Below, piece by piece: positions 44-57,624 of a stretch of 64,000 nt of DNA. The notes beneath the pieces were generated by a model. It saw only the letters and a list, made by a program, of their open reading frames with translations, was not told the origin of the DNA and ran no database searches. The position numbers and the translations under genes were made by a program. The stretch covers positions 81,181 through 145,180 of the forward strand of contig PLYC01000007.1 in the NCBI GenBank assembly GCA_003151625.1, in the 5' to 3' direction. The first letter of the stretch is position 1. Each line of letters starts with the position of its first letter. This DNA is from Candidatus Doudnabacteria bacterium. Lineage in GTDB: Bacteria; Patescibacteriota; Doudnabacteria; UBA920.

Positions 44-1891
44 ATGTCAATTTTCAGTAAAATCACCCCGGAAGAACTGGAACAAAAGAAGCAGAATCTT
101 AAACAGGCTGAAACCGAACGCGGTTTGAGCTCCAGTTTAGGCGACTTGGAAAAAACTTATCGCGAAGGTTTAACCACGCTAAAAGATTTAATCGCGCCGG
201 CCGCGCTTAAGTTTGACAGCTCATATTTTGAGCTTAACGGCAAATTCGGCAGGAGCTTTTTTGTCCTGGCTTACCCGAGGTTTTTATCCAGCAATTGGCT
301 GTCTTTTATTATCCAGGCCGAGGGCGCGCTGGATTTGTCCATGTTTATTTATCCAATAGATTCGGCGGAGATTTTAAAAAAACTCAAAAGTAAAGTCGGC
401 GAACTTGGCTCGCAAATGGCCATTAACACGGAAAAGGGCATGGTGCGCGATCCAATGCTGGAAACTGCTTACAAGGACGTGGAAGGTCTGCGGGACAGTT
501 TAATGCAGGGTACGGAAAAATATTTCCGGTTTGCTTTGTATTTTACAATTTACGCCACGGACTTAAAAGAGCTGGATAAATTTTCCAGCACCCTGGAAAG
601 CTCCCTGGGTTCCAAGTTAATTGTAACCAAGCGCGCGCTAATGCAAACCCAGAATGGGCTGAATTCCACTTTGCCTTTGGGTATGGACGAGCTGGATGTG
701 GCCAATAATATGAATACCAGCCCGCTGTCCTCCTGTTTCCCGTTTGTATCTTCGGACTTAACCAGCAACGACGGAATTTTGTACGGCATTAACCGCCACA
801 ACAACAGCCTTATTTTGTTTGACCGTTTTGCCATGGAAAACGCCAATTCCGTGGTTTTTGCCAAATCCGGCGCCGGGAAATCGTATGCCGTAAAATTGGA
901 AGTTTTGCGCAGTTTAATGGTAGGCACGGACGTCATAATTGTGGATCCGGAAAATGAATACCAGCATTTGGCCTCGGCCGTGGGCGGTACCTATTTGAGC
1001 GTGTCCTTAAATTCAGCCTCGCGCATTAACCCGTTCGATTTGCCCGTGGCCATAGAGGGAGAAAGCAATGCCGATGTTTTACGCACCGCCGTTATTAACT
1101 TGCTAGGTCTGTTTAGTCTTATGATAGGCAAGTTAAATCCCACGGAAGAAGCCTTAATGGATAAGGCTCTTTGGCAGACTTTTGCCAAAAAAGACATCAC
1201 TCCCGATTTGGCGGATTTTCGCGGAATGGAATATCCGACTATGAACGACTTGGTAGAAATTTTGAACAACATGGTCGGGGCGGAAAATTTGGGACAGCGC
1301 CTGACCAAATATACCGAAGGCACTTTTGGCGGCCTGCTTAACCAGCAGACCAATGTGGTGTTAAATAATCAGTTGGTGGTGTTTTCCATCCGCGATTTGG
1401 AAGAGGAACTCCGGCCAATAGCTATGTATATTATTTTAAATTATATTTGGAATATTGTGCGCAGTGAACTCAAAAAACGCATTTTGGCGGTTGACGAAGC
1501 CTGGATTTTAATGCAGCACGAAGATTCGGCAAGGTTTTTGTTCGGCATTGCCAAACGCGCGCGCAAATATTATTTGGGTCTGACTACTATTACCCAGGAC
1601 GTGGCCGATTTTTTGGCCAGCCCTTACGGCAAACCCATTGTTACCAACTCCTCCATTCAAATGCTGCTTAAACAGAGCCCTGCGGCTATTAATGTTATTG
1701 CCGAAACTTTCTTTTTAACCGAAGGTGAAAAGTATTTGCTGCTTGAAAGCGAAGTCGGCGAAGGGATATTTTTCGCGGGTCTGAAGCATGCGGCCATTAA
1801 AATTTACGCCTCTTACGTGGAAGACCAAATTATTACCACCGACCCCAAACAGCTTTTACAAATTCAGGACAGCCAGGATAAGCTAAATTAA
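44..1891 (+). CDS. VirB4/TrbE-family type IV secretion / conjugative-transfer ATPase (short form)
   Basis: 615 aa. Walker A motif AKSGAGKS, a later DEAW-type Walker B motif, and the overall VirB4 (DUF87/AAA-10) layout. Immediately followed by a large membrane protein. Confidence 0.7.
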   Translation: MSIFSKITPEELEQKKQNLKQAETERGLSSSLGDLEKTYREGLTTLKDLIAPAALKFDSSYFELNGKFGRSFFVLAYPRFLSSNWLSFIIQAEGALDLSMFIYPIDSAEILKKLKSKVGELGSQMAINTEKGMVRDPMLETAYKDVEGLRDSLMQGTEKYFRFALYFTIYATDLKELDKFSSTLESSLGSKLIVTKRALMQTQNGLNSTLPLGMDELDVANNMNTSPLSSCFPFVSSDLTSNDGILYGINRHNNSLILFDRFAMENANSVVFAKSGAGKSYAVKLEVLRSLMVGTDVIIVDPENEYQHLASAVGGTYLSVSLNSASRINPFDLPVAIEGESNADVLRTAVINLLGLFSLMIGKLNPTEEALMDKALWQTFAKKDITPDLADFRGMEYPTMNDLVEILNNMVGAENLGQRLTKYTEGTFGGLLNQQTNVVLNNQLVVFSIRDLEEELRPIAMYIILNYIWNIVRSELKKRILAVDEAWILMQHEDSARFLFGIAKRARKYYLGLTTITQDVADFLASPYGKPIVTNSSIQMLLKQSPAAINVIAETFFLTEGEKYLLLESEVGEGIFFAGLKHAAIKIYASYVEDQIITTDPKQLLQIQDSQDKLN

Positions 1892-1982
1892 TTTTCAATT
1901 AACAATTTTCAATTTTCAATCAAACCGCGAAATATCGCGGAGCAATTGAAAATTGCTAAATGAAAATTGAAAATTTTTTATT
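1892..1982. terminator. Long imperfect inverted repeat / hairpin between the VirB4-like gene and the giant protein gene
   Basis: caattttcaattttcaat ... ccgcgaaatatcgcgg (perfect palindrome) ... attgaaaattg...gaaaattgaaaat followed by a T-run. Confidence 0.4.
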
Positions 1983-4900
1983 ATGGCAACCCTTACTCCA
2001 ACTCAAAATTCTGCCGATGTTGAAAACCAAAAAGCCGGCGGGCGGGCCGGCGGACAAAATAGCGGCGGCAAGCAGTCTGGAACCTGGTCTATTCCCGGTT
2101 ATTTTTTTCTGGGTAGTAGGAGAATTGCAATAACCGAAATCAGGGTTAATAATGTTTCTATTCATCCTAATAATACTGGAGGGATCCGTCTTAAACACAA
2201 CGATAGAGTAACGTTTATAGGCTCCGGTTTGGAAATTTATAATGAGGCTGGGTTTTTAGGGGAAGGTTCAGGCGCAAGCTTAAAAAATATTTTAATCGCC
2301 CCGGAATCCGGTGGTTCAAAGCTTAGTTTTACGGTCCCGGATTTTGACAATAGCATAAAGGACGGCGGATATTTTTGGTTAAAATTATTTAGTAAAGTCT
2401 CCCGGGCGCAAAAGGTAATTGCGCCTTATTTGGTTTATGGGGTCGAGGAGACAGAAGAACAGAAGAAGCAGAAAAAGATATCAGAAGAAGAGGATAAAAT
2501 TAAAGGCCTAAAAACTGTCTTAACGCCCGGCCCAACGTCTCTGGTAATGGGTGCGATGGGTGGAGTTATCGGAGTGATAGCCAAGGCTACAGCCGGGATT
2601 GGCGGCAAGTCCGAAGCGGACAAAACAACTCCGGGCGGGAGGACAACGGTTCCCGGTGGAAAAGAAGTTGGATTAGGCGGAAAGTCTGGACAATCGGATG
2701 GTAAATCTGCGGGTGGGGCTGGAGCGGTGCCATCACCGGTTTTGGCTGGTCAGGCAGATGACGATTCCGACATGGACGAAGGTGATTTTGAACCTGCCGG
2801 GGAACTGGAAAAACCGGTAGAGACGTTTACGGAAACTTCTCAGCAAAGCGGGGAAACGGTGGCTGATTTTTTGCGCGAAAATTCGCAAATTACAGTGGGC
2901 CCCAAAGTGTTAGCGGCTCTGCAAAGCGGCAAACTGGAAAATTTAACGGAAAGTGAAAAAGTCAGCTTGGAGTCCGTAATTAAATCTGTTGCCTCGGGTC
3001 AGGGCGGCACTCCTTTGGAAGTTATGGCCGCGGCACAACGGGTTATTGAGTCGGTTGCCAGTCAGACAGTTACCAGTCAGGCAGAAAATCAGCCGGAAGT
3101 TAAAGCTGTTGATCAAGCACTTGGTGAAGCAGTAAAACAACCTTTAGTTCAAAGCGAAGTCAAAACATCCGCGGATTCCGGTCAAACCGCGAGCCAAAGC
3201 GCCAAGATTGTAGCAAAATTTTTACGGGAAAATCCCCAAATTAAAGTTGATGCTAAAGTTCTAGCGGCATTGCAAAGTGGCGATTTAAGCAAGTTAACAG
3301 CCCAGGAAGTATCAAGTCTAAAAAGTATAATGAGCGTAATGGCTCAAGGCCAAGGCGAAGCGACAGCTGAAGTAATGGCCGCGGTGCAAATGGTTGCGCG
3401 GGTTGTTACAGGCACAATTTCGGCTACAGTTACCGGAATGGGAGCAGTAAGCGGCACTGTCAGCTCAAAGGCCGTTAGTACGTCGGAAGTTAGCGCTGAT
3501 ATTTCTTCACAAACTTCCGGTGCTGTAAGCGGTACGGCTAAAGTTAGAGGTGGCGCGACATCGCAAATTTCCGGCACAGTAGAAAAAACTGTATCCTCTG
3601 AAGCAGGAGTTAAAACTGGAGGTTCGGTTAAGGTTGAAGGTGGGGCTAAAATTTCCGGACAACAGCAAGCCTCGGCAGGCGGCCGAGTGTCATCTGAGGC
3701 TGAAATAAACGCTAAATCGGAAACAGAAGTTGCCGCTCAAGGTTCGGCTAAGGCTGAAGCCACATCGGAATCCTCGGTTTCTTCCAAGTCCGAAGAGAGT
3801 TCAAAAGTTGGGGCTACAACCAATGCTGAGAAAAAAGTTTCGGGAAGCGAAGGAGGTGAAGTAGGAAAAATTGCCGTTTCCGGAGAATTGGGAACCGAAC
3901 CTAACCAAGTTAGTCCGCAAGGACTCACAGCAGATGGTAAATTGACTGCAGACATCGACACGAATTTAAAATCCACTCTAAAACCGGAAACCGGCGAGGG
4001 TTCAGAGAATTTGGAGGAACCACAGCCGTCTTTGGGAAAAGGCGCGGTTGATGGCATAAGTGTTGAAAAGGAGACTGCAGGCCAGCCTGAGGAAGAAGCC
4101 GCGTCAGAAATAAAAACAACAGCAGTTTCAAAACAAACTCCGGCCGCGACTAAGCCACGGGCTAAATCGGAAGCTGAAATAAAACAGCCGCAGACCGGCG
4201 GGGGAGCTTCGGACATTGCGAAGCGTCTAAAGGAAAGAGGCTTGGAATTAGAATTGACTTTGCGCGGAAAACTTGCCGGGCCGTCTTTAAATGTTTCTGA
4301 TCAAAAGCAAAAACCTGCCGCAGGACAGAAAGGGGAAGGCGCCCCAAGTCAGCAACAGCCGATTCTTTCGAAAACCGGGACATCAAAGGAACGCGGAATG
4401 TCCGCACCATTGGGTGATTTGCCAGGGTCAAATAGGCAAGATGGCCAAGAATCAGCAGGCCGCGCAATTGATTCCGCAAATCGGCCGAAGGAACCGTCGG
4501 CGGGTGATGGGAAAAAATCTCAGGCCGAGGCACAAGATCAGGCGCCTGATGCATCATCGAGCAATGGTGGCGGTGGTTTACCGGGGTCGCCACCCGAAAA
4601 GGGAGAGACGCGAGACTTAGAACCATCAAGCGGATCGGCTTTGCCACCTTCGGAGAGCAATCGCGATCAGGGTAATGTTTTTAAAGATCCAAGAGGTGCC
4701 GGTGATATGTTTGGTGAAGCTTTGAAAGGTGACGTTAGTCCAAACCCCGCTGCTTACCCTACCGCAAGAAGACAGATAGATTTGGCAGGCAAAGGCATTG
4801 GCAAGGCTTCCAGCAAAATTTGGTATTACGGTTTTGGTTCGGCTACGGCAACTTTTTTTACAGGCGCGGATTTTATGCTCGGCGCCGTGGTTATGGATGC

Positions 4901-5198
4901 TTATTGGCTGTTTGGACACAAAAAAAATCCCGAACTGTTTCCCTTAAAAGGATGGCAGAAGGCTGTTACCGTTGCCGCCAATGTTATTCCGCCAATCTTG
5001 ATTATGCTGATTTTTGCTTTAATAATGGCCGTGGGGTGCAACTATCCTTTACCGATTAAAACATCAGCCGGTAATAGTTACCGCCTTACAGTTATTGGAG
5101 CGTTTATTGGCGATGACTGTAAATATTTTGATGTTTCAAATATAACAGCATCAAACACCACTCCCGCCTCAACCCAATCAGGCTCACAAAAACCCTAG
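1983..5198 (+). CDS. Giant repetitive surface/membrane protein (A/S/T/E/G-rich) with C-terminal transmembrane segments; possible T4SS/pilus-associated partner of the VirB4-like ATPase
   Basis: 1071 aa with a low-complexity core. It contains a ~70-aa internal tandem duplication (ADFLRENSQITVGPKVLAALQSGKLENLTESEKVSLESV... then AKFLRENPQIKVDAKVLAALQSGDLSKLTAQEVSSLKSIM...). Two or three hydrophobic helices lie in the last ~130 aa. Confidence 0.6.
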   Translation: MATLTPTQNSADVENQKAGGRAGGQNSGGKQSGTWSIPGYFFLGSRRIAITEIRVNNVSIHPNNTGGIRLKHNDRVTFIGSGLEIYNEAGFLGEGSGASLKNILIAPESGGSKLSFTVPDFDNSIKDGGYFWLKLFSKVSRAQKVIAPYLVYGVEETEEQKKQKKISEEEDKIKGLKTVLTPGPTSLVMGAMGGVIGVIAKATAGIGGKSEADKTTPGGRTTVPGGKEVGLGGKSGQSDGKSAGGAGAVPSPVLAGQADDDSDMDEGDFEPAGELEKPVETFTETSQQSGETVADFLRENSQITVGPKVLAALQSGKLENLTESEKVSLESVIKSVASGQGGTPLEVMAAAQRVIESVASQTVTSQAENQPEVKAVDQALGEAVKQPLVQSEVKTSADSGQTASQSAKIVAKFLRENPQIKVDAKVLAALQSGDLSKLTAQEVSSLKSIMSVMAQGQGEATAEVMAAVQMVARVVTGTISATVTGMGAVSGTVSSKAVSTSEVSADISSQTSGAVSGTAKVRGGATSQISGTVEKTVSSEAGVKTGGSVKVEGGAKISGQQQASAGGRVSSEAEINAKSETEVAAQGSAKAEATSESSVSSKSEESSKVGATTNAEKKVSGSEGGEVGKIAVSGELGTEPNQVSPQGLTADGKLTADIDTNLKSTLKPETGEGSENLEEPQPSLGKGAVDGISVEKETAGQPEEEAASEIKTTAVSKQTPAATKPRAKSEAEIKQPQTGGGASDIAKRLKERGLELELTLRGKLAGPSLNVSDQKQKPAAGQKGEGAPSQQQPILSKTGTSKERGMSAPLGDLPGSNRQDGQESAGRAIDSANRPKEPSAGDGKKSQAEAQDQAPDASSSNGGGGLPGSPPEKGETRDLEPSSGSALPPSESNRDQGNVFKDPRGAGDMFGEALKGDVSPNPAAYPTARRQIDLAGKGIGKASSKIWYYGFGSATATFFTGADFMLGAVVMDAYWLFGHKKNPELFPLKGWQKAVTVAANVIPPILIMLIFALIMAVGCNYPLPIKTSAGNSYRLTVIGAFIGDDCKYFDVSNITASNTTPASTQSGSQKP

Positions 5199-5294
5199 CG
5201 TTCTTATTACAAGCCTAGAGCCATAATATTGCAGGATATCAGCGTATTTTGCTTTAACCGACAAACTGCCGGCTGGCACAAGTTGCTCCCAGCC

Positions 5295-5323
5295 TTGACA
5301 GGTTTTTTAAAATTTTATAAACT
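5295..5323 (+). promoter_or_regulatory. sigma70-like promoter for the AbrB/RelE toxin-antitoxin operon
   Basis: TTGACA, then a 17-nt spacer, then TAAACT. Confidence 0.5.
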
Positions 5324-5326
5324 ATA

Positions 5327-5349
5327 GTTGAACTGTTCAATCGTTCAAC
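5327..5349. promoter_or_regulatory. Palindromic candidate operator (ttgaac-t-gttcaa plus a gttcaac half-site repeat) in front of the antitoxin gene
   Basis: 13-bp perfect palindrome ttgaactgttcaa followed by tcgttcaac. This is the typical position for toxin-antitoxin autoregulation. Confidence 0.45.
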
Positions 5350-5377
5350 TTATCAATTAATCAAAAAGTTTAAATTT

Positions 5378-5665
5378 ATGGTTATTGTTACCGTAAAAAA
5401 TAAATATCAGGTTGTTATTCCACAGAGTTTGCGCAGGCAGGTCGGGGTTAACGTTGGCGATTTAATGGATGCCCAGGTGAAGAAAGGTAAAATAATTTTT
5501 GCCCCAAAAACATTACTGGACCGAGATTTGCTAGATAGTGTGGCCGAAAGTATGGCTGAGTATAAAGCGGGTAAGTTTTATGGTCCATTTGATAACCATA
5601 AAGATTTTATCGCGTCCCTTCATAGGGAAGCAAAAAAACTAAAAAAAGCTCGCAAACAAAAATAG
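5378..5665 (+). CDS. AbrB/MazE/SpoVT-family antitoxin
   Basis: 95 aa. N-terminal swapped-hairpin motif VVIPQSLRRQVGVNVGD. Lies 2 nt upstream of a RelE-like gene. Confidence 0.7.
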   Translation: MVIVTVKNKYQVVIPQSLRRQVGVNVGDLMDAQVKKGKIIFAPKTLLDRDLLDSVAESMAEYKAGKFYGPFDNHKDFIASLHREAKKLKKARKQK

Positions 5666-5667
5666 CC

Positions 5668-5913
5668 ATGAGGCTGGTTTTTACCCCAAAATTTATTAAA
5701 AAGTATGTACAAGCGCCTTCGGAAATTCAACGGGCTTTTGATAAACAAAGCAAATTTTTATTATTCAATATTCGCTACCCTTCTCTTTACGCCAAGAAAT
5801 ATGATGAGAGCGGGGACTTATGGCAGGCGCGGGTTAATCTTGATTGGCGGTTTTATTTTACTATTGAGGGCGATGAGTATCGTCTGCATGATATAAAGGT
5901 TCATTCCAAATGA
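5668..5913 (+). CDS. RelE/ParE-superfamily toxin (type II TA system)
   Basis: 81 aa, with a ...WQARVNLDWRFYFTIEGDEYRLHDIKVH C-terminus typical of RelE/ParE. Tightly coupled to the upstream antitoxin gene. Confidence 0.65.
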   Translation: MRLVFTPKFIKKYVQAPSEIQRAFDKQSKFLLFNIRYPSLYAKKYDESGDLWQARVNLDWRFYFTIEGDEYRLHDIKVHSK

Positions 5914-6086
5914 TTATATTAGAGCGTAGCACGCCAATTTATCGGTTGGGTTATATAAAAAACAGCCCATAAATGGGCACGCTACATTTAGAATGTTATT
6001 AAGTTCCACCTGCCAATTTTGCGGATTGACAAAAATATGCTACAATAATATCAAATTTAGACAATTATTTTCGTAACAAAAATAAA

Positions 6087-7253
6087 ATGAACAAAAAAGC
6101 TATTGCCATTTTGGGGGCCATTTTCCTGTTGATTGTGGGAACTTTGGGATTTTTAATATATTCCAAGTATTCGGGCAGTAAAACTCCAGCCCCGGCTCCA
6201 GCCGCTGTAAATAACAACGCAACATCCACCGATACCAGCCAGCCAACACCAACAAACACAGCTTCCAGCACGCCACAAACCCAAAACAATTCGTCGAATA
6301 TTGTACAACTCACTTCGGATCAAGTTGTCTCGCCGGCATTATTTTTTAACGGCACGGGCATAAGTTATTTCGACCACCAGGGGAATTTGTACCAGGCTAC
6401 TTTACAAAATAATAACGGCCAGTTGCAGTTAACATCAAAAAAACAGCTTGATATACCTTTGAAGCCGGGTATGACTAAAATTTTATGGCCGTCCAAAGGT
6501 AACGACTTTATTGCTCAGTTTACGGATGCCAGCGGCAAAAATACCTGGAGCTACTTTAACAGCAATTCCGGCAGTTATACCAATTTGCCCAGCCAGGTGG
6601 AATCTGTTGACTGGATGCCCACAGGGGACAAAGTTATGTATGTATGGTTGGATAACAACAAGGCCGCTTTAAGCCTGGGAAATCCCGACACCAGTAAACA
6701 TCAAACCCTTGGCGCGATGTGGGAAATCGACGACCAGATACATGTGTCGCCAAACGGTTCGCAAGTGTTATATTTTGAAACCCAAAACACCTCGGCCAAC
6801 AATTTTATTAATTCCGTAAGTTCGGACGGCAAAACGTGGAAAGGGCTGGTAAAAAACGGCCAGAATTTTGGCAGTTTGTGGAGTCCGGACGGGCAAAAGT
6901 TTTTGTTTGGTAAAAAGGATCCCAGCACGCAGAATTATCAGCTTTGGGTCTATAACCTAAATTCCGGGGAAATTAAAAATTTGGGGTTGTTTACAACCGT
7001 GGATAAGGCGGTCTGGGATAAAGACAGTAATGTGATTTATGCCGCGGTGCCGACTTCCGGAATTATTGGTGACAACAGTCTGACTGTTGACAGTTTTTAC
7101 AAAATGGACACTTCCACTTTGGACAAAAAACAATATACTTCCTCGGGCGCTTCCATAGACGGCAGGGATTTATTCTTAAACTCCACGTCGGATAAATTAT
7201 TTTTCAGGAACGCACAGGACGGGGGATTATATTATTTAGACCTCACACAATAG
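6087..7253 (+). CDS. Secreted/membrane-anchored beta-propeller protein (TolB/PD40-like repeats) with a T/S/P/Q-rich linker
   Basis: N-terminal TM helix, a low-complexity linker, and repeated motifs SPNGSQVLYF and WSPDGQKFLF typical of PD40/TolB-like blades. Confidence 0.5.
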   Translation: MNKKAIAILGAIFLLIVGTLGFLIYSKYSGSKTPAPAPAAVNNNATSTDTSQPTPTNTASSTPQTQNNSSNIVQLTSDQVVSPALFFNGTGISYFDHQGNLYQATLQNNNGQLQLTSKKQLDIPLKPGMTKILWPSKGNDFIAQFTDASGKNTWSYFNSNSGSYTNLPSQVESVDWMPTGDKVMYVWLDNNKAALSLGNPDTSKHQTLGAMWEIDDQIHVSPNGSQVLYFETQNTSANNFINSVSSDGKTWKGLVKNGQNFGSLWSPDGQKFLFGKKDPSTQNYQLWVYNLNSGEIKNLGLFTTVDKAVWDKDSNVIYAAVPTSGIIGDNSLTVDSFYKMDTSTLDKKQYTSSGASIDGRDLFLNSTSDKLFFRNAQDGGLYYLDLTQ

Positions 7254-7435
7254 AACCAGTTTGTTTAAATTATAGTTTAGTTTTTTGAATAAGTCTGTAA
7301 ATTTCTAATTATTTTAATTTCTAATTGACCTAAACAAACCCCAATAACTAATGCAATTAGAAATTGGGTATTGGGATTTGTTTAGAAATTAGGTAAATTA
7401 GAATAATTAGAAATTTTTGTTATAGTATAAAATTT
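7254..7435. repeat. AT-rich iteron-like array (aatttctaatt / aattagaaatt x5) around a central hairpin, upstream of radA
   Basis: Two direct and three inverted copies of an 11-mer are arranged symmetrically around ctaaacaaaccccaata...tattgggatttgtttag. Confidence 0.5.
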
Positions 7436-8758
7436 ATGCCCAAGACTCTAACAATTTTCGTTTGTTCTAATTGCCAATACAAAACTCCGCGCTGGCAGGG
7501 GAAGTGTCAGAATTGCGGGCAGTGGAATACTTTGGAAGAACAGAGGCAAATTTCCAATACCAAATTTCAAATGTCAAATGCGATGGCGCCGGTTGATTTA
7601 GCGTCGCTTGATGTGGATCAGAAGCCCCGGATAAAAACGGGTATTGGGGAATTTGACCAAGTGACCGGCGGCGGTATTGTTCCGGGAAGCCTGATTTTGC
7701 TCGGTGGTGATCCGGGCATTGGCAAATCCACTCTGGCCCTCCAGCTGGCAATGAAAATTGATGCGGAAGTTTTATATGTTTCAGGGGAAGAGTCGGTAAA
7801 CCAAATTAAACTCAGGGCACACCGTATAAATAAAGACCATCGGCTCAACGTTCTTGCCGAGATTTCGCTGGAAACAGTTTTGGCCAGCATCGCCGATCAG
7901 CATCCGGAACTGGTTATTGTCGACTCCATTCAGACAATGTACAGCGAGGAGGTCTCCGGCGTGGCCGGCGGAGTCTCCCAGGTTACCAATGCCGTTCAAC
8001 AAATAATGCGCCTGGCCAAGCAAAACCATATTTCTTTTATTGTTATTGGCCATGTTACCAAAGAAGGCTACTTGGCGGGTCCAAAAACCCTGGAGCATAT
8101 GGTGGATACGGTTTTATATTTGGAAGGGGAGAGGTTTGCCGCTTTTAGGATACTGCGTTGCGTAAAAAATCGTTTTGGCACGACTAATGAAGTCGGCGTG
8201 TTTGAAATGGCCGGAGTTGGGCTGGTGGAAGTTAAAAACCCGTCACAGTTATTTTTGGGCGAAGACAGCATAAAAGCCTCCGGAAACATAATTACTTCCA
8301 TTGTGGAGGGCAATCGCGCGTTGCTTTTGGAAATTCAGGCGCTGACATCGGTCACCAATTTTGGCTACCCAAAGCGCACTACGGCCGGGTTTGATTCCAA
8401 CCGCCTCCAATTGCTCACTGCCATATTAGGCAAGCGCGCGGGGCTGAATTTGAGCAATCAGGACATTTATATCAACGTAGTCGGCGGCCTAAAAATAGAC
8501 GAACCCGCGGCCGACTTAGCCGTAGCCTTAGCCATAGTTTCCAGTTTAAAAGATGTGATAATTCAGGACACCGTCGCGGTAGGCGAGCTCGGCCTCTCCG
8601 GCGAACTCCGTTTTGTGCCGAATTTGGAAAAACGGATTATTGAGGCGGAAAAATTAGGATTCAAAAAAATAATTTGTCCAAAAACAAAAATAACAGGAAA
8701 AAATAAAATTGAGGTCATTCAGGTTAAGACTTTGACGGAAGCTATAAGTAAACTGTAG
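7436..8758 (+). CDS. radA: DNA repair protein RadA/Sms
   Basis: N-terminal C4 zinc finger (CSNCQYKTPRWQGKCQNCGQW), RecA-like Walker A GDPGIGKST, KNRFG motif, and a Lon-like C-terminal domain. Confidence 0.95.
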   Translation: MPKTLTIFVCSNCQYKTPRWQGKCQNCGQWNTLEEQRQISNTKFQMSNAMAPVDLASLDVDQKPRIKTGIGEFDQVTGGGIVPGSLILLGGDPGIGKSTLALQLAMKIDAEVLYVSGEESVNQIKLRAHRINKDHRLNVLAEISLETVLASIADQHPELVIVDSIQTMYSEEVSGVAGGVSQVTNAVQQIMRLAKQNHISFIVIGHVTKEGYLAGPKTLEHMVDTVLYLEGERFAAFRILRCVKNRFGTTNEVGVFEMAGVGLVEVKNPSQLFLGEDSIKASGNIITSIVEGNRALLLEIQALTSVTNFGYPKRTTAGFDSNRLQLLTAILGKRAGLNLSNQDIYINVVGGLKIDEPAADLAVALAIVSSLKDVIIQDTVAVGELGLSGELRFVPNLEKRIIEAEKLGFKKIICPKTKITGKNKIEVIQVKTLTEAISKL

Positions 8759-8826
8759 TTGACCCATTTATGGGCTGTCCGATATATTTATTAGATTTTC
8801 CAGGAGATTGTTTCGGGATGTCCTTG

Positions 8827-8867
8827 CAGTTTCCCCTCCCTTTACGGGAGGGGCTAGGGGAGGGTGA
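8827..8867. repeat. REP-like palindromic element, family 1 (cagtttCCCCTCCCtt-N-acGGGAGGGGctaGGGGAGGGtga)
   Basis: Near-identical copies at 56811-56851 and 57465-57505. Variant copies lie in frame inside the PPDK_N gene. Confidence 0.8.
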
Positions 8868-9060
8868 TGAGTTTGCGATACCATATATAAATACAAGGAC
8901 CGAACGCAGCTCCACCACGTTCGGCCCTGTCAGGTTTCGGGAGCCCCTCGGTTCCCAAAACAAGCCTTTAAAAGCAAATTAGTTCACCCTGGAGCTATCT
9001 GTTAGCCGCACGGAGCTGGCGGCTATGGATGCACTAATTGGCTTTATGGGCTGTTGTGGT

Positions 9061-9603
9061 TTACTTACCCAGAAGTATCCAGCTGAACACAGATGGAGCC
9101 GATGGCATACCGCTCCGCACATTTGCCATTACATCTGGTTGATTCCGTAATACAGTTCGCCTTCTTCGTGGCGTTCTTTTGATTCCGAGGCCGTTTTCAA
9201 ACACTTTGGAGGTAGCAGCCGGAACATCTTCCGTTGGCGGTTCCGGTTCTACCCCTGATGCTTCGGCGGCTTTTACAATGTTGTCGCATCTTATACAATA
9301 CTGTGCCCAAGGTGCGGCATCCAGCCGTTTGAGTTGCAGGTCTTCCTTGCAGTGTGAGCATATGCCGTAGCTACCGTCGGCAATACGAGCCAACGCAGCT
9401 TTGACTTCCTGAAGAAGGACGCTGTCTCGTTTGAGGTTGAGGATGGCGAGTTCGCGTTCGCCAGCCAGTTGGACTTCATCGAGGGCATCGGGAACGCTTT
9501 GAATTGCGATCCCTGCCCTATTCCGGGGAGCCAACGAAAAGGATAACACTATCGCTTTGGCTTCCAGCATTGATTTGTATTTGTTGACTTCGGTTTGCGT
9601 CAT
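9061..9603 (-). CDS. DksA/TraR-family C4 zinc-finger protein (with C-terminal extension)
   Basis: CSHC...(17)...CIRC zinc-finger spacing and a preceding coiled-coil region typical of DksA/TraR. Local GC is higher than the surroundings. Confidence 0.55.
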   Translation of the reverse strand: MTQTEVNKYKSMLEAKAIVLSFSLAPRNRAGIAIQSVPDALDEVQLAGERELAILNLKRDSVLLQEVKAALARIADGSYGICSHCKEDLQLKRLDAAPWAQYCIRCDNIVKAAEASGVEPEPPTEDVPAATSKVFENGLGIKRTPRRRRTVLRNQPDVMANVRSGMPSAPSVFSWILLGK

Positions 9604-9716: not shown

Positions 9717-11954
9717 TTATTCGAAATGTACAACTTTACGTTTAATTTTCTCACTCAACAAAGGATATTTTTTCAAATTTTCATCGTCTTTAAGTAGGTT
9801 AATAGCCTCCTGCCTAGCAGGTTCAATTAGCGACGTATAAGATGGGTCAAAGTATTTAAAATTCCAGCCGGACTGGGTTTGGCCGTAAATTTCGCCAAAG
9901 CCCCGCTGTTTTAGGTCCAGTTCGGCCAGCTCAAAGCCGTCTTGGGTTTTGGTAAAAGCATTAAGGCGGGTGATAGTTTCGTTATTGGCATTATCTTTCA
10001 CCACCTCCCCCCGCTTCGCGGGGTACTCCTCCTTAGAAAAGGAGGAGAGGCTCCGCCTTTGTCCAGATGACGCGGATAACCGCGGAGCTTCCCCTCCTTC
10101 TTTAAGGAGGGGTGGACGCGAAGCGGACGGGGTGGTGTACCCTGAACCGGAATTTAATGATTGGTTCAGGGCTTTAGTCATAAACAAAAAGCAATAGCTT
10201 TGGTGCTCGGCGCGGCCAACCCGGCCGCGGAACTGGTGGAGTTGGGAAAGGCCAAAACGCTCCGCGCCTTCAATTAACATTACCGATGTATTGGGCACGT
10301 CCACGCCAACTTCCACTACAGATGTTGAAACTAAAATTTGGATTTTATTATCCAAAAAATCTTTCATCACACTTTCTTTTTCCGCACCTTTTAGTCTGCC
10401 GTGCATAAGACCAATGTTAAAATTGGGAAAGATTTTTTTTAAAAGGTCGACTTCGGCTTTTGCCGATTTAACGCCCAGTTTGTCCGACTCCTCAATTAAG
10501 GGAGTGATTACAAAGACCTGTCGGCCGGCGGTTATCTGCTTAGCTATAAACTCATAGGCTTTGGCGCGGTTCTCATTTGTTACCAATTTAGTAACTATTT
10601 GTTTGCGACCTAGAGGCTTGGTTTTAATTTGCGAAATATCCAGCTCGCCGTAAACAGCCAATTGCAGAGTGCGCGGAATTGGCGTGGCGGAAAGCGAAAG
10701 CAAATGAGGGACTTTTTTCGTATTTTCAAATAAAGCCGCCCGTTGGTCTACGCCAAAGCGGTGCTGTTCGTCTATAATTACCAAAGCGAGCTTTTTAAAT
10801 TTTATGTTTTTTTGCAACAATGCGTGTGTGCCAATATACAGTGCGGGCATGCCTTCGGCGAGAAGCTTGGTTAATTTGTCTTTTTTTTCCGGTTTGTTGT
10901 TGAGCAGGCAAAAATTTGCCGTAAGCAGAGCACACCTGGTATTAAAATTGGCTGGATTTTCACAAAACATTTTATGGGCGGTTTGGTAGTGCTGTTTAGC
11001 CAAAATTTCCGTGGGCGCCAAAAGTGCCACTTGAAAGCCTTCCGATACCGCCTGCAGGGCGGCTATTAGGGCGACCACGGTTTTGCCGCTTCCAACATCA
11101 CCTTCCAATAGCCGGTTCATAGGCATGGGTTTTTCTAAGTCCTGTAAAATATCCCAGGCGGCCTTTTTTTGTTCGACGGTCAGTTTAAAAGGCAGGCTAT
11201 CTACAAATTGTTTTATAAGTGACTGATTAAATTTAATCGGATAGCTTTGTTTTTTTGCCAACTCCAGTTTATGTTTTTGCGCTAACAGCTGGTTATAAAA
11301 TATTTCCTCAAACGCCAGGCGTTTTTTTGCCTCTGTGACATTCTGCTCGGTTTCCGGGAAATGAGACTGCTTAATAGTTTGCCTAATATCCATCAGCTTT
11401 TGATTTTTGATAATTTCCGCGGGTAACGATTCCGGCACTTCATCGGCAAGTCCAATAACAGAAGCGACCAAGTTGCGGAAAGTTTTTGGGTAAAGGCTTT
11501 GTTTAAGATGATAGAGCGGTACTAATCTGGACGTGTGGATAGGGAAGTCCGATGCCTTTTCGTAAATTGGGTTTGTCATTTGTAAACCAAAGTTGTAATA
11601 GTCCGCCTGTCCGGCTAAAAATATTTCCTCCCCGGCAATTAGATTTTTTGCCAAATACGGCTGATTAAACCAGACAACTTTAATAGAGCCGGTGTCGTCA
11701 CTGACAACGGCCTCGGCCAACATCAAATGGCTTTTAAAAGAAAACCGGCTGCTGATTTGTTTGATTTTTACTTTTAAACTGACGTTTTCGCCGGGCTTTA
11801 AATCGGCAATAACGCGGGTTTGTGAAAAATCCAGGTACCGGTATGGAAAATATAAAAGTAAGTTTTGGACGGAATCAAGTCCAAGTTTTTTTAAAGCCGC
11901 TAATTGCGGCTTTTGAAGTTTGGGAAGATTTTCGATGGGGGAATTGAGCTGCAT
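9717..11954 (-). CDS. recG: ATP-dependent DNA helicase RecG
   Basis: Wedge domain, Walker A GDVGSGKT, and DEQHRFG helicase motifs. It carries a ~50-aa low-complexity in-frame insertion encoded by a palindromic element. Confidence 0.9.
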   Translation of the reverse strand: MQLNSPIENLPKLQKPQLAALKKLGLDSVQNLLLYFPYRYLDFSQTRVIADLKPGENVSLKVKIKQISSRFSFKSHLMLAEAVVSDDTGSIKVVWFNQPYLAKNLIAGEEIFLAGQADYYNFGLQMTNPIYEKASDFPIHTSRLVPLYHLKQSLYPKTFRNLVASVIGLADEVPESLPAEIIKNQKLMDIRQTIKQSHFPETEQNVTEAKKRLAFEEIFYNQLLAQKHKLELAKKQSYPIKFNQSLIKQFVDSLPFKLTVEQKKAAWDILQDLEKPMPMNRLLEGDVGSGKTVVALIAALQAVSEGFQVALLAPTEILAKQHYQTAHKMFCENPANFNTRCALLTANFCLLNNKPEKKDKLTKLLAEGMPALYIGTHALLQKNIKFKKLALVIIDEQHRFGVDQRAALFENTKKVPHLLSLSATPIPRTLQLAVYGELDISQIKTKPLGRKQIVTKLVTNENRAKAYEFIAKQITAGRQVFVITPLIEESDKLGVKSAKAEVDLLKKIFPNFNIGLMHGRLKGAEKESVMKDFLDNKIQILVSTSVVEVGVDVPNTSVMLIEGAERFGLSQLHQFRGRVGRAEHQSYCFLFMTKALNQSLNSGSGYTTPSASRPPLLKEGGEAPRLSASSGQRRSLSSFSKEEYPAKRGEVVKDNANNETITRLNAFTKTQDGFELAELDLKQRGFGEIYGQTQSGWNFKYFDPSYTSLIEPARQEAINLLKDDENLKKYPLLSEKIKRKVVHFE
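9999..10137. repeat. Complex ~139-bp GC-rich palindromic element inserted in frame within recG
   Basis: Outer stem caccacctccccccgcttcgcg / cgcgaagcggacggggtggtg, with internal hairpins (ctcctcctt-agaaa-aggaggag; cccctcctt-cttt-aaggagggg; ccgcgg x2). Confidence 0.75.
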
Positions 11955-12870: not shown

Positions 12871-12903
12871 AACAGCCCATTCTCTAGAAAAGGGCTGTTT
12901 TTA
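12871..12903. terminator. Bidirectional intrinsic terminator
   Basis: aaaaaacagccc-attctctagaaaa-gggctgttttt. Confidence 0.7.
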
Positions 12904-15037: not shown

Positions 15038-16102
15038 CTAAAGCATCGTAATCGGTCTGGACTGGGTAATATAGAATTTCCCGTTTTCAAAAGCCCACTC
15101 AATGTCCTGCGGTTTGCCGTAATGTGTTTCTATATTTTTGCAAATTTTGGCAATTTCCACTATTTGCTTGCCGGTAAGTTTTTGTTTGCCTCCGGTTGCC
15201 TTGTCTAATTTCTTATTTCTATTTCCTGTTTTCTCTCTTACTATGGCAAAAGTTTGCTCGGAAACATTTATGTCCAAAATGGAAAAATTGTTTTTGTGAA
15301 CAATATAAGTGTCCGGAGTAATCATGCCGCCGACAATAGCTTCTCCCAAACCAAAACCGGCTTCCACCACCATTTGGTTCTTGTCTTTGGTTACCGGGTG
15401 CACGGTAAAACTAATTCCGGAAACCTCGCTTTGCACCATCTTTTGCACCACAACCGCCACGGAAATCCTTGTGTTTATTCCCCTCCCTTGCTTGTCCGCC
15501 GTAGCTTTAGCGAAGGAGGGACGGGAGGGGTGGGGGGAGGGTGATTTTTTTGTTTTGTAAAACCCTTTCTCAAAAGCATAAAAAATTGCCCTGGGCGTAA
15601 ATAGCGAAGACCAGCATTTTTTTACACTGGCAATAACATTTTTTTCCGTTACATTCAAATAAGTTTCCAGCTCCCCGGCCCAGGAAGCAACCGATGAGTC
15701 CTCGGCCGTGGCGCTAGATCTAACGGCTACAAACTGGTTTATTCCCCTCCTGCCCGAGGAGGGGTTAGGGGAGGTGGGAGATTTTTTAAACAGCTGATGA
15801 TACGCCTCCATAATCTCTTTCTGCAAATCCTCCGGAATAACCTCATCCAAAATCATCCTGCGGATTTCCGCCGAAGCCTTGTCCACAGAATTAACATCCT
15901 TATGGTTGACTTTTTTCAGCAACGCCTCTATATCCGCCTCAATCTCCGTCTCCTCCAAAAATCTGTCAAAAGCACCCGCAACCACTACAAACCCTTGCGG
16001 CACCGGCAATCCCGCCTTAGTCATTTCCCCGAGCGAGGCTCCCTTGCCCCCAGCAATGTCGACATCTTTTTTTGAAATTTGCCCAAAAGTTTTTATGTGC
16101 AT
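15038..16102 (-). CDS. Stand-alone PPDK_N / PEP-synthase-type ATP-grasp (nucleotide-binding) domain protein, with two in-frame REP insertions
   Basis: GGKGASLGEM motif, VAVRSSATAED, VAVVVQKMV and DIEWAFENGKFYITQSRPIT, which are hallmarks of the PEP synthase / PPDK / rifampin-phosphotransferase ATP-binding domain. Extra segments SPTSPNPSSGRRGIN and KKSPSPHPSRPSFAKATADKQGRGINTR coincide with REP DNA. Confidence 0.8.
   Translation of the reverse strand: MHIKTFGQISKKDVDIAGGKGASLGEMTKAGLPVPQGFVVVAGAFDRFLEETEIEADIEALLKKVNHKDVNSVDKASAEIRRMILDEVIPEDLQKEIMEAYHQLFKKSPTSPNPSSGRRGINQFVAVRSSATAEDSSVASWAGELETYLNVTEKNVIASVKKCWSSLFTPRAIFYAFEKGFYKTKKSPSPHPSRPSFAKATADKQGRGINTRISVAVVVQKMVQSEVSGISFTVHPVTKDKNQMVVEAGFGLGEAIVGGMITPDTYIVHKNNFSILDINVSEQTFAIVREKTGNRNKKLDKATGGKQKLTGKQIVEIAKICKNIETHYGKPQDIEWAFENGKFYITQSRPITML
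15476..15544. repeat. REP family 1 variant (composite with the cgctaaagctacgg hairpin) inserted in frame in the PPDK_N gene
   Basis: ttattcccctcccttg...ccgccgtagctttagcgaaggaggg...acgggaggggtggggggagggtga. Confidence 0.75.
15738..15779. repeat. REP family 1 variant inserted in frame in the PPDK_N gene
   Basis: tttattcccctcc-tgcccga-ggaggggttaggggaggtggga. Confidence 0.7.
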
Positions 16103-23411: not shown

Positions 23412-23452
23412 AAAAGAAAAACCCGCTCCCACCTTAAGGTGGGAGCGGGCTT
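23412..23452 (-). terminator. Intrinsic terminator downstream of the Clp ATPase gene
   Basis: cccgctcccacc-ttaa-ggtgggagcggg followed by a T-run on the minus strand. Confidence 0.75.
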
Positions 23453-26806: not shown

Positions 26807-26847
26807 TCGCTGATATGTACGCCGATTAGGTCGCTGAATCTTCAGTT
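26807..26847. repeat. Family 3 repeat: tcgctgatatgtacgccgattaggtcgctgaatcttcagtt
   Basis: A near-identical copy lies at 52996-53036. Inverted copies lie at 26224-26261 and ~27262-27296. Confidence 0.7.
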
Positions 26848-27239
26848 CGCGCTTTGTCGTAGATTACGCGTTTGATTTCAAGTCGCTTGGGTGAAAAATT
26901 TATTAGAAAACCGAGTTTATACTCGGAACCCTTCAAATAATTCCAAAAAGTGGCCTCGTCTTGTTTGTTGACAAAAGGCTTCGATTTTAGTTCCAAGACA
27001 ATTTCATTGTTAACAACTTTGTCTGGAACATAAGTACCAACCTTTTTCCCTTCATAATATATGTTTATTCGTTTCTGGCATTCAACCGTTAATCCTCGTT
27101 TTTCAAGAGCAATAGTAAGGGCGTTGTCCACTATTGATTCTTTAAACATTCCTCGAAATTGCTTCCAGACATCAAAACAGGCTCCTCTAATCTCGTAAGA
27201 CTCCTTTTCATATAAAAAATCTTTAACTAACTTTGACAT
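26826..27239 (-). CDS. GxxExxY-family protein (PD-(D/E)xK-like fold)
   Basis: YEIRGACFDVWKQFRGMFKESIVDNALTIALEKRGL...EIVLELKSK...KLGFLINF matches the GxxExxY family pattern. Bracketed by family 3 repeats. Confidence 0.65.
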   Translation of the reverse strand: MSKLVKDFLYEKESYEIRGACFDVWKQFRGMFKESIVDNALTIALEKRGLTVECQKRINIYYEGKKVGTYVPDKVVNNEIVLELKSKPFVNKQDEATFWNYLKGSEYKLGFLINFSPKRLEIKRVIYDKARTEDSAT

Positions 27240-27306
27240 TCCGCTAGAATTTAACTCTTAGCTTCAGCGACAATATCAGCGTACCTATCAGCGACTGTTC
27301 AGCGGC

Positions 27307-45568: not shown

Positions 45569-45662
45569 AAGCTGTGCCAGACGCAGTACGCAAACGCGGG
45601 GACAAAAACGCCGCGGCGTCTAACACGGCGTTTGCTTACAGCGTTTAATTCAGCTTCTATAT

Positions 45663-56754: not shown

Positions 56755-56810
56755 AAAAGTTTTTATATAAAAATTGATTCCGTTTAGTTTTTTGCCATCA
56801 TGAACCCCTG

Positions 56811-56851
56811 TAGTTTCCCCTCCCTTAACGGGAGGGGCTAGGGGGAGGGTG
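56811..56851. repeat. REP family 1 copy
   Basis: tagtttcccctcccttaacgggaggggctagggggagggtg. Confidence 0.8.
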
Positions 56852-56960
56852 TAATACGATTTGAATAAAGAAAGGTGATGGGGTTTAGCGCAGTCTAAAC
56901 CCCTTGAGCGTGTAACTAACGGCAGAAAAGCTCTGCGGCCATTGGTTACGAAGAGCGAAA

Positions 56961-57419: not shown

Positions 57420-57464
57420 GAGACTGGTTTTACCAATCTTTTGCCAGCAAAGCGGTTTGTCCTG

Positions 57465-57505
57465 CAGTTTCCCCTCCCTTGACGGGAGGGGCTAGGGGAG
57501 GGTGA
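57465..57505. repeat. REP family 1 copy (followed by a ccgcc-ttcgctaaagctac-ggcgg hairpin at 57533-57560)
   Basis: cagtttcccctcccttgacgggaggggctaggggagggtga. Confidence 0.8.
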
Positions 57506-57593
57506 TTAAATTTAATTAAGCCTTATTCGTTATCCGCCTTCGCTAAAGCTACGGCGGATTGTTGCACTATTATTTTTTAATTAATGTGCAACA

Positions 57594-57624
57594 AAAAACC
57601 CCGAGCCGCTAGGCTCGGGGTTTA
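57594..57624 (+). terminator. Intrinsic terminator
   Basis: aaaaaacc-ccgagccgctaggctcgg-ggttt. Confidence 0.6.

Follow-up and report, generated by a model that had tools for sequence, protein, structure and literature searches.

How can a long GC-rich palindrome lie within the reading frame of a helicase gene that keeps all of its motifs? The question is raised by the recG gene on contig PLYC01000007.1 of Candidatus Doudnabacteria, of which a stretch of 64,000 nucleotides (positions 81,181 to 145,180, hereafter the window) was analysed. A preliminary description of this DNA had proposed that a selfish palindromic element is tolerated in frame within RecG. The proposal is supported by the dispersal of the element, by its occurrence in both orientations and in several reading frames, and by empty alleles of the same gene. 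We conclude with high confidence that the segment is a mobile palindromic repeat translated as a disordered loop of RecG. It belongs to a family of repeats found mainly in Bacteroidota and Patescibacteria, the arms of which repeatedly stand next to a gene for a DUF559 nuclease.

The Insertion in RecG

The gene and its insertion have the following positions in the window.

9717-11954, minus strand: recG (745 aa), with the Pfam domains RecG_wedge, DEAD, Helicase_C and RecG_dom3_C and a match to PDB 1GM5 (E = 8e-142)
9993-10178, minus strand: the whole in-frame insertion, 62 aa or 186 nt, residues 593-654, delimited against the RecG of T. maritima and empty alleles

The open reading frame (ORF) at 9717-11954 contains the wedge domain, the superfamily 2 (SF2) helicase motifs I-VI and the C-terminal TRG/domain-3 region of a RecG protein (Pfam matches PF17191, PF00270, PF00271 and PF19833). 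The insert-containing peptide is flanked by GRVGRAEHQSYCFLF and DGFELAELDL. In the alignment with 1GM5, residues 19-592 of the query correspond to residues 129-694 of the chain, and residues 655-716 to residues 696-759. Because both flanks align to neighbouring residues of the T. maritima enzyme (694 and 696), residues 593-654 constitute an insertion, which is larger than the approximately 50 aa given previously. An alignment of 120 RecG homologs, mostly from Candidatus Doudnabacteria and other Patescibacteria, placed the extra segment in the loop directly after motif VI and its following strand. The motif-to-motif spacing is 42 aa in the majority of these homologs versus 103 aa in the RecG of the window. 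The two alignments agree with the insertion point that had been suggested before, a loop after motif VI.

The AlphaFold model of RecG, built from 56 homologs, had a mean pLDDT (predicted local distance difference test score) of 75.8. Residues 596-655 reached a pLDDT of only ~24-31 and were devoid of secondary structure, while their neighbours formed a confidently modelled strand (587-591) and helix (653-669). The insert, whose predicted peptide reads for example ...SSFSKEEYPAKRGEVV..., is predicted to be a disordered surface loop.

Anatomy and Folding of the Element

Within the insertion, the following parts were distinguished; all sequences are given on the recG coding strand.

10000-10136, minus strand: core palindromic element of 137 bp, ACCACCCC-hpA-hpB-hpC-hpD-GTAC-hpE-GGGGAGGTGGT (hp, hairpin), forward on the recG coding strand according to the covariance model and the folds
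10129-10136, minus strand: 5' arm of the outer stem, ACCACCCC, whose columns are invariant in the element alignment
10000-10010, minus strand: 3' arm of the outer stem, GGGGAGGTGGT, from the sequence and the element alignment
10114-10128, minus strand: region of hairpin A, GTCCGCTTCGCGTCC, preceded by CCGTC; weak here, variable and covarying in the family
10091-10112, minus strand: hairpin B, CCCCTCCTT-AAAG-AAGGAGGGG, a perfect 9-bp stem and a conserved module
10049-10089, minus strand: central hairpin C, GCTCCGCGG...CGGAGC, imperfect, variable or absent in the family
10026-10047, minus strand: hairpin D, CTCCTCCTT-TTCT-AAGGAGGAG, a perfect 9-bp stem and a conserved module
10009-10023, minus strand: hairpin E, CCCCGCGAAGCGGGG, variable and covarying in the family, part of a 35-mer found at at least 10 other loci
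10140-10171, minus strand: extra hairpin with a 9-bp stem, CCCTGAACC...GGTTCAGGG, encoding ALNQSLNSGSG, inside the insertion and outside the core, in this allele only

The segment 9999-10137 is indeed a nested palindrome within RecG, as had been noticed, and the peptide quoted for it is present. The outer stem of 21 bp ascribed to it is not continuous. The outermost stem is a bulged pairing of 7-8 bp between ACCACCCC and GGGGAGGTGGT, and a separate pairing of 10 bp joins CCGCTTCGCG and CGCGAAGCGG; the regions of hairpins A and E pair perfectly with each other over 10 bp. Inner hairpins had also been announced, and two perfect ones (10026-10047 and 10091-10112) and the imperfect central one were found there, with the extra hairpin at 10140-10171 lying beyond the segment originally outlined. 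Covariance model R1 scored the element at 98.9 bits on the minus strand versus 62.4 bits on the plus strand.

The segment 9999-10137 folded with -49.7 kcal/mol as DNA (z = -7.4) and with -95.2 kcal/mol as RNA of the coding strand (z = -8.4), and none of 200 shuffled sequences was as good in either case. Across the 64-kb window the palindrome is the strongest folding outlier (z = -10.3) and the sole GC-rich segment inside an ORF with z near -10. Its GC content is raised relative to recG (0.63 vs 0.44), but the earlier statement that it is far above the gene average holds only in part, since nearby conserved parts of recG also reach up to ~0.55. At the gathering threshold, Rfam found only tRNAs in the window and 19 loci, and a permissive E-value on the region returned miRNA-like hairpin noise. 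No tRNA or tmRNA found in the window overlaps the recG element.

Occupancy of the RecG Site in Relatives

The same modular element was found at the same RecG site in at least six related Doudnabacteria (L001, L002, L003, L005, L006 and L007). The insert-bearing orthologs share an outer stem (CTCCA)ACCACCCC...GGGGAGGTGGT(TGGAG) and the following order of modules: a variable hairpin A, whose loop is often TTCG; hairpin B, CCCCTCCTT-loop-AAGGAGGGGAA; a central hairpin that varies or is missing; hairpin D, CTCTCCTCCTT-loop-AAGGAGGAG; GTAC; and a hairpin E that also varies, often GCGAAGC. The element of L006 is inverted relative to recG. The same architecture at the same site in at least seven independent assemblies allowed us to set aside an assembly chimera, against which a check of the insert had been advised.

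Over a block of 57 nt, the window copy matches L001 (same strand) and L006 (opposite strand) with 98% identity. The nucleotide identity of the recG core is 69-75% (45-53% at third positions), and the best 57-nt window of the recG core against L001 or L006 is at most 0.90-0.91 identical. The site is empty in locus L008, whose RecG (P0012) is 78% identical to that of the window at the amino acid level, and in many other close relatives. The insert would have lost its special status if close relatives without a palindrome had aligned to it, and what these relatives show is neither insert nor palindrome at the site. The presence of the element does not track phylogeny, because L008 is empty and some insert-bearing orthologs are more distant (68-76%).

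In related bacteria, exactly this loop harbours at least three further, unrelated families of palindromes. The RecG of P0008 (L142) carries a perfect 13-bp hairpin of the GTAG-tagged REP (repetitive extragenic palindromic) type, which belongs to a different family (z = -5.9). In P0091 (L143) a complex palindrome of 126 nt is found (z = -8.3), and in P0004 (L141) a hairpin CTCCCTCTCCC/GGGAGAGGG...AGGGTGAGGG. The RecG loop is either an insertion hot spot with a target preference or a uniquely permissive site that reflects survivorship.

Dispersal of the Repeat Family

Genomes, one per species, were scanned with the pattern AAGGAGGAGTAC-N10-20-GGGAGGTGGT. At least 120 loci were found, often with several copies per genome, mainly in Bacteroidota and Patescibacteria. 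Among the matches listed, the Bacteroidota are represented by Saccharicrinis, Rikenellaceae, Prolixibacteraceae, Parabacteroides, Tannerellaceae, Carboxylicivirga and Flavipsychrobacter, and the Patescibacteria by Doudna-, Woese-, Roizman-, Magasanik- and Taylorbacteria, Paceibacterota and Saccharibacteria. The covariance model gave 227 matches in 100 loci, and 28 distinct full five-module elements of 98-219 nt were recognised.

Most copies in Bacteroidota are intergenic, and those of two inspected loci follow a co-oriented gene immediately on its 3' side. The unit of Carboxylicivirga is a non-coding repeat of 120-250 nt that breaks contigs. One in-frame case, an epimerase gene of Saccharicrinis, was seen in this phylum. 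Many copies in Patescibacteria lie in frame within long ORFs, such as those for a GT2 glycosyltransferase, KsgA, AlaRS, a PIF1 helicase and an Eco57I-type methylase. The metagenome-assembled genome of L001 contains at least two more partial copies, one 3' of atpC (L018) and one in frame on the opposite strand of a ComF-like gene.

The exact 35-mer common to the window, L001 and L006 is present on 11 metagenome contigs, 10 of them new and nearly all from one sample. It lies in frame in genes for MnmA, a RimK-like protein, a pseudouridine synthase, GrpE and a Pyr_redox_2 (TrxB-like) protein, and in a different frame in a DUF6580 gene; further copies are intergenic half-elements. Across unrelated genes the element is read in at least three forward and two reverse frames. 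The near-identical copies at many unrelated sites, frames and orientations point to a recent proliferation of the family. As in MITEs (transposable elements of the miniature inverted-repeat kind), terminal inverted repeats are present (ACCACC.../...GGTGGT), and in the Doudnabacteria subfamily they extend to CTCCAACCACC/GGTGGTTGGAG.

Two possible carriers were considered and rejected. The IS1595 element beside recG in L001 has terminal repeats unrelated to those of the palindrome. The arm pattern was matched by a single viral contig, in a high-GC context (L140:454-487, IMGVR_UViG_3300027495_000019), and this lone match is too little to suggest a phage carrier.

Reading Frame and Conserved Structure

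The six genic full cores measure 137, 134, 110, 131, 116 and 98 nt; all of these lengths are 2 mod 3, and all six cores are open in the frame used. The lengths of the 22 intergenic cores fall into all three classes (0, 1 and 2 mod 3), and stop codons occur in all or nearly all frames of most of these cores. The length class and open frame kept by the genic cores argue for an insert that is translated and not removed, and the difference from the intergenic cores indicates that only frame-preserving copies survive in genes. An intein, an intron and a ribozyme were rejected as explanations of the segment: the searches gave neither a domain nor an RNA family that would fit, and the frame constraint argues for translation.

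The variable hairpins required methods other than MAFFT with RNAalifold, which misses them because they are out of register; anchored folding, a chimera test and a covariance-model alignment were used. Among 28 elements there are 24 distinct A hairpins and 23 distinct E hairpins, and nearly all fold better than shuffled sequences. Real hairpins are more stable than chimeras made of the arms of two elements (p = 4e-7 and 8e-6), and this contrast persists after trimming of the conserved stem bases. In the covariance-model alignment of 150 hits, which is fitted to the model and so leans towards structure, 93.4% of the cells are paired and 22 of the 33 pairs show double-sided changes. The number of compensatory cells was 417, compared with 116 +/- 15 in shuffles (0 of 500 reached 417) and at most 113 in slid controls, and every pair of hairpins A and E covaries. 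In these two hairpins it is the structure and not the sequence that is conserved.

On the forward strand, G.U pairs outnumber A.C pairs (126 vs 16, and 39 vs 11 in the four hairpins alone), with the reservation that the orientation was picked by model score, though the choice is dominated by sequence asymmetry (99 vs 62 bits). From this excess, selection would seem to act on a single folded strand, of RNA or of single-stranded DNA.

A DUF559 Nuclease Gene beside the Element Arms

A phmmer search over all ORFs of the collected loci found 18 DUF559 ORFs, of which about 14 lie 4-100 nt from element arms. Arm-adjacent genes were seen in Bacteroidota (L009, L054, L060, L067, L070, L097, L101 and L111), in Patescibacteria (L106 and L113) and on two Doudnabacteria-like contigs with the exact 35-mer subfamily of the window (L129 and L138). 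The layout is constant. An arm ending in ...GGGGTGGT or GGAGGTGGT is followed after 6-80 nt by the DUF559 ORF with its stop codon and, 2-7 nt further, by an arm starting with ACCACC(TC)CCC. In L067, full elements stand on both flanks of the gene. Unbiased clustering of the 206 ORFs located at most 120 nt from the arms gave DUF559 as the sole broadly recurrent family (11 loci); the next families, RecG among them, were found at no more than three loci each, and none of the recurring clusters was a transposase.

The element-adjacent proteins match Pfam PF04480 (E = 5e-34 to 7e-19) and PDB 3HRL (E = 1.7e-19). Their core, KFRRQHS...DFYC...IELDG..H, is conserved across both phyla and fits the D...E.D/ELDG...H core of PF04480. 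Other nucleases frequent in the loci, of the PDDEXK_3/GxxExxY, PDDEXK_5 and GIY-YIG types, were dismissed as candidates, since they lie thousands of nucleotides from the elements and show no association with them.

At L129:4908-4942 and L138:1541-1575, the right outer arm GGAGGTGGTTGGAGT runs directly into the ATG of DUF559. The GGAGG of the arm, 10 nt upstream of this ATG, is a plausible ribosome-binding site, and the palindrome could gate translation of the nuclease. At L106:382-4299 (Bacterium BMS3Abin15), an in-frame DUF559 domain (aa 496-601) is situated inside an ORF for an Eco57I-type restriction-modification methylase, between a right half-element and left half-elements. If this ORF is real, the nuclease gene and the repeat arms are read through as part of the host protein.

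We propose with moderate confidence, from the adjacency, that DUF559 is the mobilising or maintaining enzyme of the element. It is also possible, as a more tentative suggestion, that DUF559 is the dedicated partner of GC-rich composite palindromic repeats as a broad class, perhaps including CGTC-REP/RPE-like and BoxC-like ones. If this were true, the system would be REPtron-like but based on a nuclease with a fold unlike that of RAYT, and it would explain how repeats colonise the protein-coding genes of reduced genomes. We found no literature linking DUF559 to palindromic repeats or describing in-frame palindromes in the candidate phyla radiation (CPR), in a search of incomplete coverage that gives absence of evidence only.

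Comparison with Known Palindromic Repeats

A close likeness is to the RPE, in-frame palindromic repeats that are a hallmark of Rickettsia (Ogata et al. 2000, 2002, as cited in PMC10969869 and PMC3733652). Both kinds are dispersed multi-copy palindromes of ~100-150 bp that have no transposase of their own and lie in frame in many unrelated housekeeping genes of small compact genomes, where surface loops spare the fold. Our family has these RPE-type properties, including hosts that are undisrupted by the in-frame copies. It differs from RPE in its occurrence in Patescibacteria and Bacteroidota instead of Rickettsia, and in its defined five-module architecture, covarying hairpins and arms bracketing a DUF559 gene.

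A REPtron is a RAYT gene flanked by REPs or REPINs, according to PMC3733652 and PMC3116915. Like REPs and REPINs, the elements are non-autonomous, multi-copy hairpin repeats, often inverted doublets that fold into one larger hairpin, with structure kept over sequence and with an enzyme gene flanked by repeats; REPs, too, are found inside replication and repair genes. In contrast to them, the flanked gene encodes a Vsr-like DUF559 protein of the PD-(D/E)XK fold and not an HUH Y1 transposase of the RAYT type, the feet of the hairpins lack GTAG (CCGTC is found for A and GTAC for E), and the elements are composite and of greater length.

Di Nocera et al. 2013 (PMC3733652) divide REPs into GTAG- and CGTC-tagged super-families and count RPE-4 and RPE-6 among the CGTC REPs. 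The CGTC units are described there as 20-40 bp long, with 8-9-bp stems starting with A-T pairs, a loop of 4-5 nt and a CCA tail; REPs often occur as dimers whose spacers are structured, replication and repair genes frequently contain intragenic REPs, and the CGTC-tagged ones were reported to lack a dedicated enzyme. Its supplement lists no RecG, DUF559 or Bacteroidales/CPR cases. Our elements resemble the units so described in the CCGTC before hairpin A and the CCTC (a listed variant) on the opposite arm, in the layout of a dimer with a structured spacer, and in their intragenic copies in DNA repair genes. In 24 elements, ACCACCCCGTC precedes hairpin A with little or no variation, and the other arm carries ACCACCTCCCC. 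Some Bacteroidales copies read CGTC-ATGACC...GGTCAT-GAC, a form absent from the window copy and from most CPR copies. The family only partly fits the definition of the CGTC unit, and it has neither the GTAG tag nor a flanked RAYT gene.

With the bacterial MITEs (Correia/NEMIS, ERIC and BOX; PMC10969869) the family shares small size, non-coding nature, terminal inverted repeats, dispersal and occasional in-frame fusions. Neither a target-site duplication nor a parent insertion sequence was recognised for it. The kind of element, a selfish in-frame palindrome, is already known. The family, its range of phyla, its scale in CPR housekeeping genes and its link to DUF559 appear to be new.

Proposed Explanation and Alternatives

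The explanation that we consider probable as a whole is that the recG segment is a non-autonomous mobile palindromic repeat of the REPIN/MITE/RPE kind, ~100-140 bp long, with DUF559 as its likely partner. Its modules follow in the order outer stem, variable hairpin A, conserved B, variable centre, conserved D, GTAC and variable E. The repeat may have landed in the permissive surface loop just after motif VI of RecG, or may have survived only there. Staying open and in frame, it would be translated as a disordered loop of ~60 aa that leaves the helicase fold undisturbed and is presumably neutral for RecG. The family proliferates within genomes. In the large genomes of Bacteroidota its copies build up between genes, and in compact CPR genomes the surviving copies are largely frame-preserving ones in tolerant loops. 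Since the hairpins and not their sequences are conserved, a folded single-stranded form, DNA or RNA, may be recognised during spread. The most likely partner would be the small Vsr-like PD-(D/E)XK endonuclease DUF559, bracketed by the arms as RAYT is by REPINs; orphan copies, that of recG among them, would be served by it in trans.

Several observations weigh against this explanation. Further copies of the element modules, for which a search had been recommended, do exist in related genomes, unrelated genes and intergenic DNA, but pattern searches, BLAST, nhmmer and the covariance model found no full second copy in the 64-kb window, where only weak hairpin-B-like relatives occur. No direct repeat was recognised as a target-site duplication at the RecG junctions. 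Part of the cross-phylum conservation of the right half stems from the pattern used in the search, and the translation of the insert is what we infer from its frame. On the side of the enzyme, phmmer over the ORFs of the window found no DUF559 gene, so the recG copy would be an orphan relying on an enzyme whose gene lies elsewhere. Bacteroidota and Patescibacteria differ in how DUF559 is oriented with respect to the forward strand of the element. PD-(D/E)XK nucleases are not classical transposases, and adjacency alone cannot separate a DUF559 that moves the elements from one that homes into or beside them.

This last distinction underlies the alternative in which DUF559 is a selfish homing endonuclease that uses the repeats as landing sites, while the repeats are spread by another transposase, template switching or recombination. 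The DUF559/Vsr clade includes a homing endonuclease of a group I intron (PMC3424549), and the gene always stands exactly between the ...GGTGGT and ACCACC... arms in either gene orientation, as site-specific insertion would give; the in-frame DUF559 between element parts in the methylase gene of L106 also fits. Homing nevertheless seems unlikely to us, as gene-free tandem elements (L026) have an unrelated spacer of 37 nt, no obvious empty homing site was seen, the plausible ribosome-binding site supplied by the arm in L129 and L138 suggests co-adaptation, and there is no alternative transposase that recurs beside the elements. Still less probable is a structured RNA or DNA signal that benefits the host (an mRNA stabiliser, a terminator, a translational pause or a regulatory hairpin) and is not primarily selfish. 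Such a role would account for the strong covariation, for the excess of G.U over A.C and for the co-oriented position just 3' of genes in both inspected Bacteroidota cases, and REPs are reported to act as RNA elements (PMC3733652). It is opposed by the lack of a matching Rfam family, both orientations within RecG, the many frames in unrelated genes, a presence that varies among close RecG orthologs, and near-identical copies at many unrelated loci.

Hardly any weight can be given to a vertically inherited, lineage-specific RecG loop with a protein function, in which the palindromy would be incidental, or to an assembly artefact. A fixed site in several related RecGs and a frame that is always kept would be expected of such a loop. 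The same DNA is found, however, in unrelated genes and intergenic regions and across phyla, is inverted in L006 and is far more conserved than its host gene; other unrelated palindromic families occupy the same loop in relatives, and the loop is predicted to be disordered. The number of independent assemblies with the insert speaks against an artefact.

The mobile in-frame repeat has consequences beyond recG. To our knowledge, in-frame palindromic repeats have been considered a near-unique oddity of Rickettsia. The same phenomenon is now seen at large scale in CPR/Patescibacteria, in RecG, MnmA, AlaRS, KsgA, GrpE, PIF1 and others. With such inserts, 'conserved' CPR proteins become longer and more diverse, which is of importance to annotation, phylogenetics and structure prediction. 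The family is common to Patescibacteria and Bacteroidota almost module for module, which points either to horizontal spread or to a very old, structurally constrained element. As far as we know, the way in which CGTC-REP, RPE and BoxC-like repeats are mobilised has been an open question for more than 20 years. The adjacency of DUF559 across phyla offers a concrete candidate enzyme for these repeats, and a very common domain of unknown function gains a testable function.

Neighbouring Genes and Other Repeats

Synteny of the recG neighbourhood is kept between positions 44-9603 of the window and L001, L002, L003, L005 and L008. The neighbours of recG include genes with Pfam matches to a TraG-type P-loop (DUF87), a TraC-like protein and PrgI, a large unannotated ORF, RadA, a DksA/TraR zinc-finger protein and a tRNA-Arg. 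The TraG-type, TraC-like and PrgI genes suggest a conjugation or type IV secretion-like system. In relatives, mobile genes intrude near recG, namely IS1595 (L001) and Transposase_mut (L143).

Two RecG homologs of Doudnabacteria, P0070 (853 aa) and P0071 (835 aa), contain a whole PDDEXK_3 ('GxxExxY') nuclease domain in frame between DEAD and Helicase_C. It is a selfish-looking insertion of a second, different kind in recG. A free-standing ORF for a GxxExxY-type PDDEXK_3 nuclease at 26829-27257 (minus strand) of the window is homologous to the domain inserted in P0070 (phmmer E = 6e-34) and is distant from every palindromic element.

The single DUF559 gene of E. coli K-12 is ycjD (L144, NC_000913.3, 1351030-1351830). 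A partial GC-rich palindrome lies across its stop codon, and a perfect 17-bp hairpin just upstream of the gene. About 170 nt downstream we found the repeat CCCCTCGCCCCTCTGGGGAGAGGGTTAGGGTGAGGGGA, which has a median of 16 copies per genome in 5,426 E. coli genomes and which we take to be BoxC. No repeats are annotated around ycjD in the RefSeq record, and the sequence was read directly. By a rough estimate, the chance that such a repeat is adjacent to one given gene is ~0.003. The E. coli BoxC is ~56 nt long and present in 22-32 copies (PMC2267715). The ycjD repeat resembles the RecG insert of the P0004 type and a three-copy intergenic repeat of the window. A single locus of this kind is no proof, but it allows the nuclease hypothesis to be tested in a model organism.

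The window contains the following further repeats.

~8822-8868, 56806-56854 and 57460-57506: three copies of a second, intergenic repeat, CCTGCAGTTTCCCCTCCCTTNACGGGAGGGGCTAGGGGAGGGTGAT, with a perfect 8-bp hairpin and a GGGGAGGGTGA tail, similar to the E. coli BoxC type
15038-16102, minus strand: gene with a PPDK_N domain and two small in-frame GC-rich palindromic segments, at 15744-15764 and 15467-15541
23422-23449, 57596-57623, 12871-12899 and 45606-45633: examples of perfect hairpins

The first segment of the PPDK_N gene has a module of the hairpin-B type, CCCCTCCTCGGGCAGGAGGGG, and gives the peptide ...SPTSPNPSSGRRG...; the covariance model matched it at 15666-15778 (E = 0.017). The second segment encodes ...SPSPHPSRPSFAKATADKQGRG... 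(fold z = -3.0). Both have the look of short or degenerate relatives of this kind of element. Perfect GC-rich hairpins with a stem of at least 8 bp number 15 in the window versus 2.3 +/- 1.7 in composition-matched shuffles, and some of these 15 are probably terminators.

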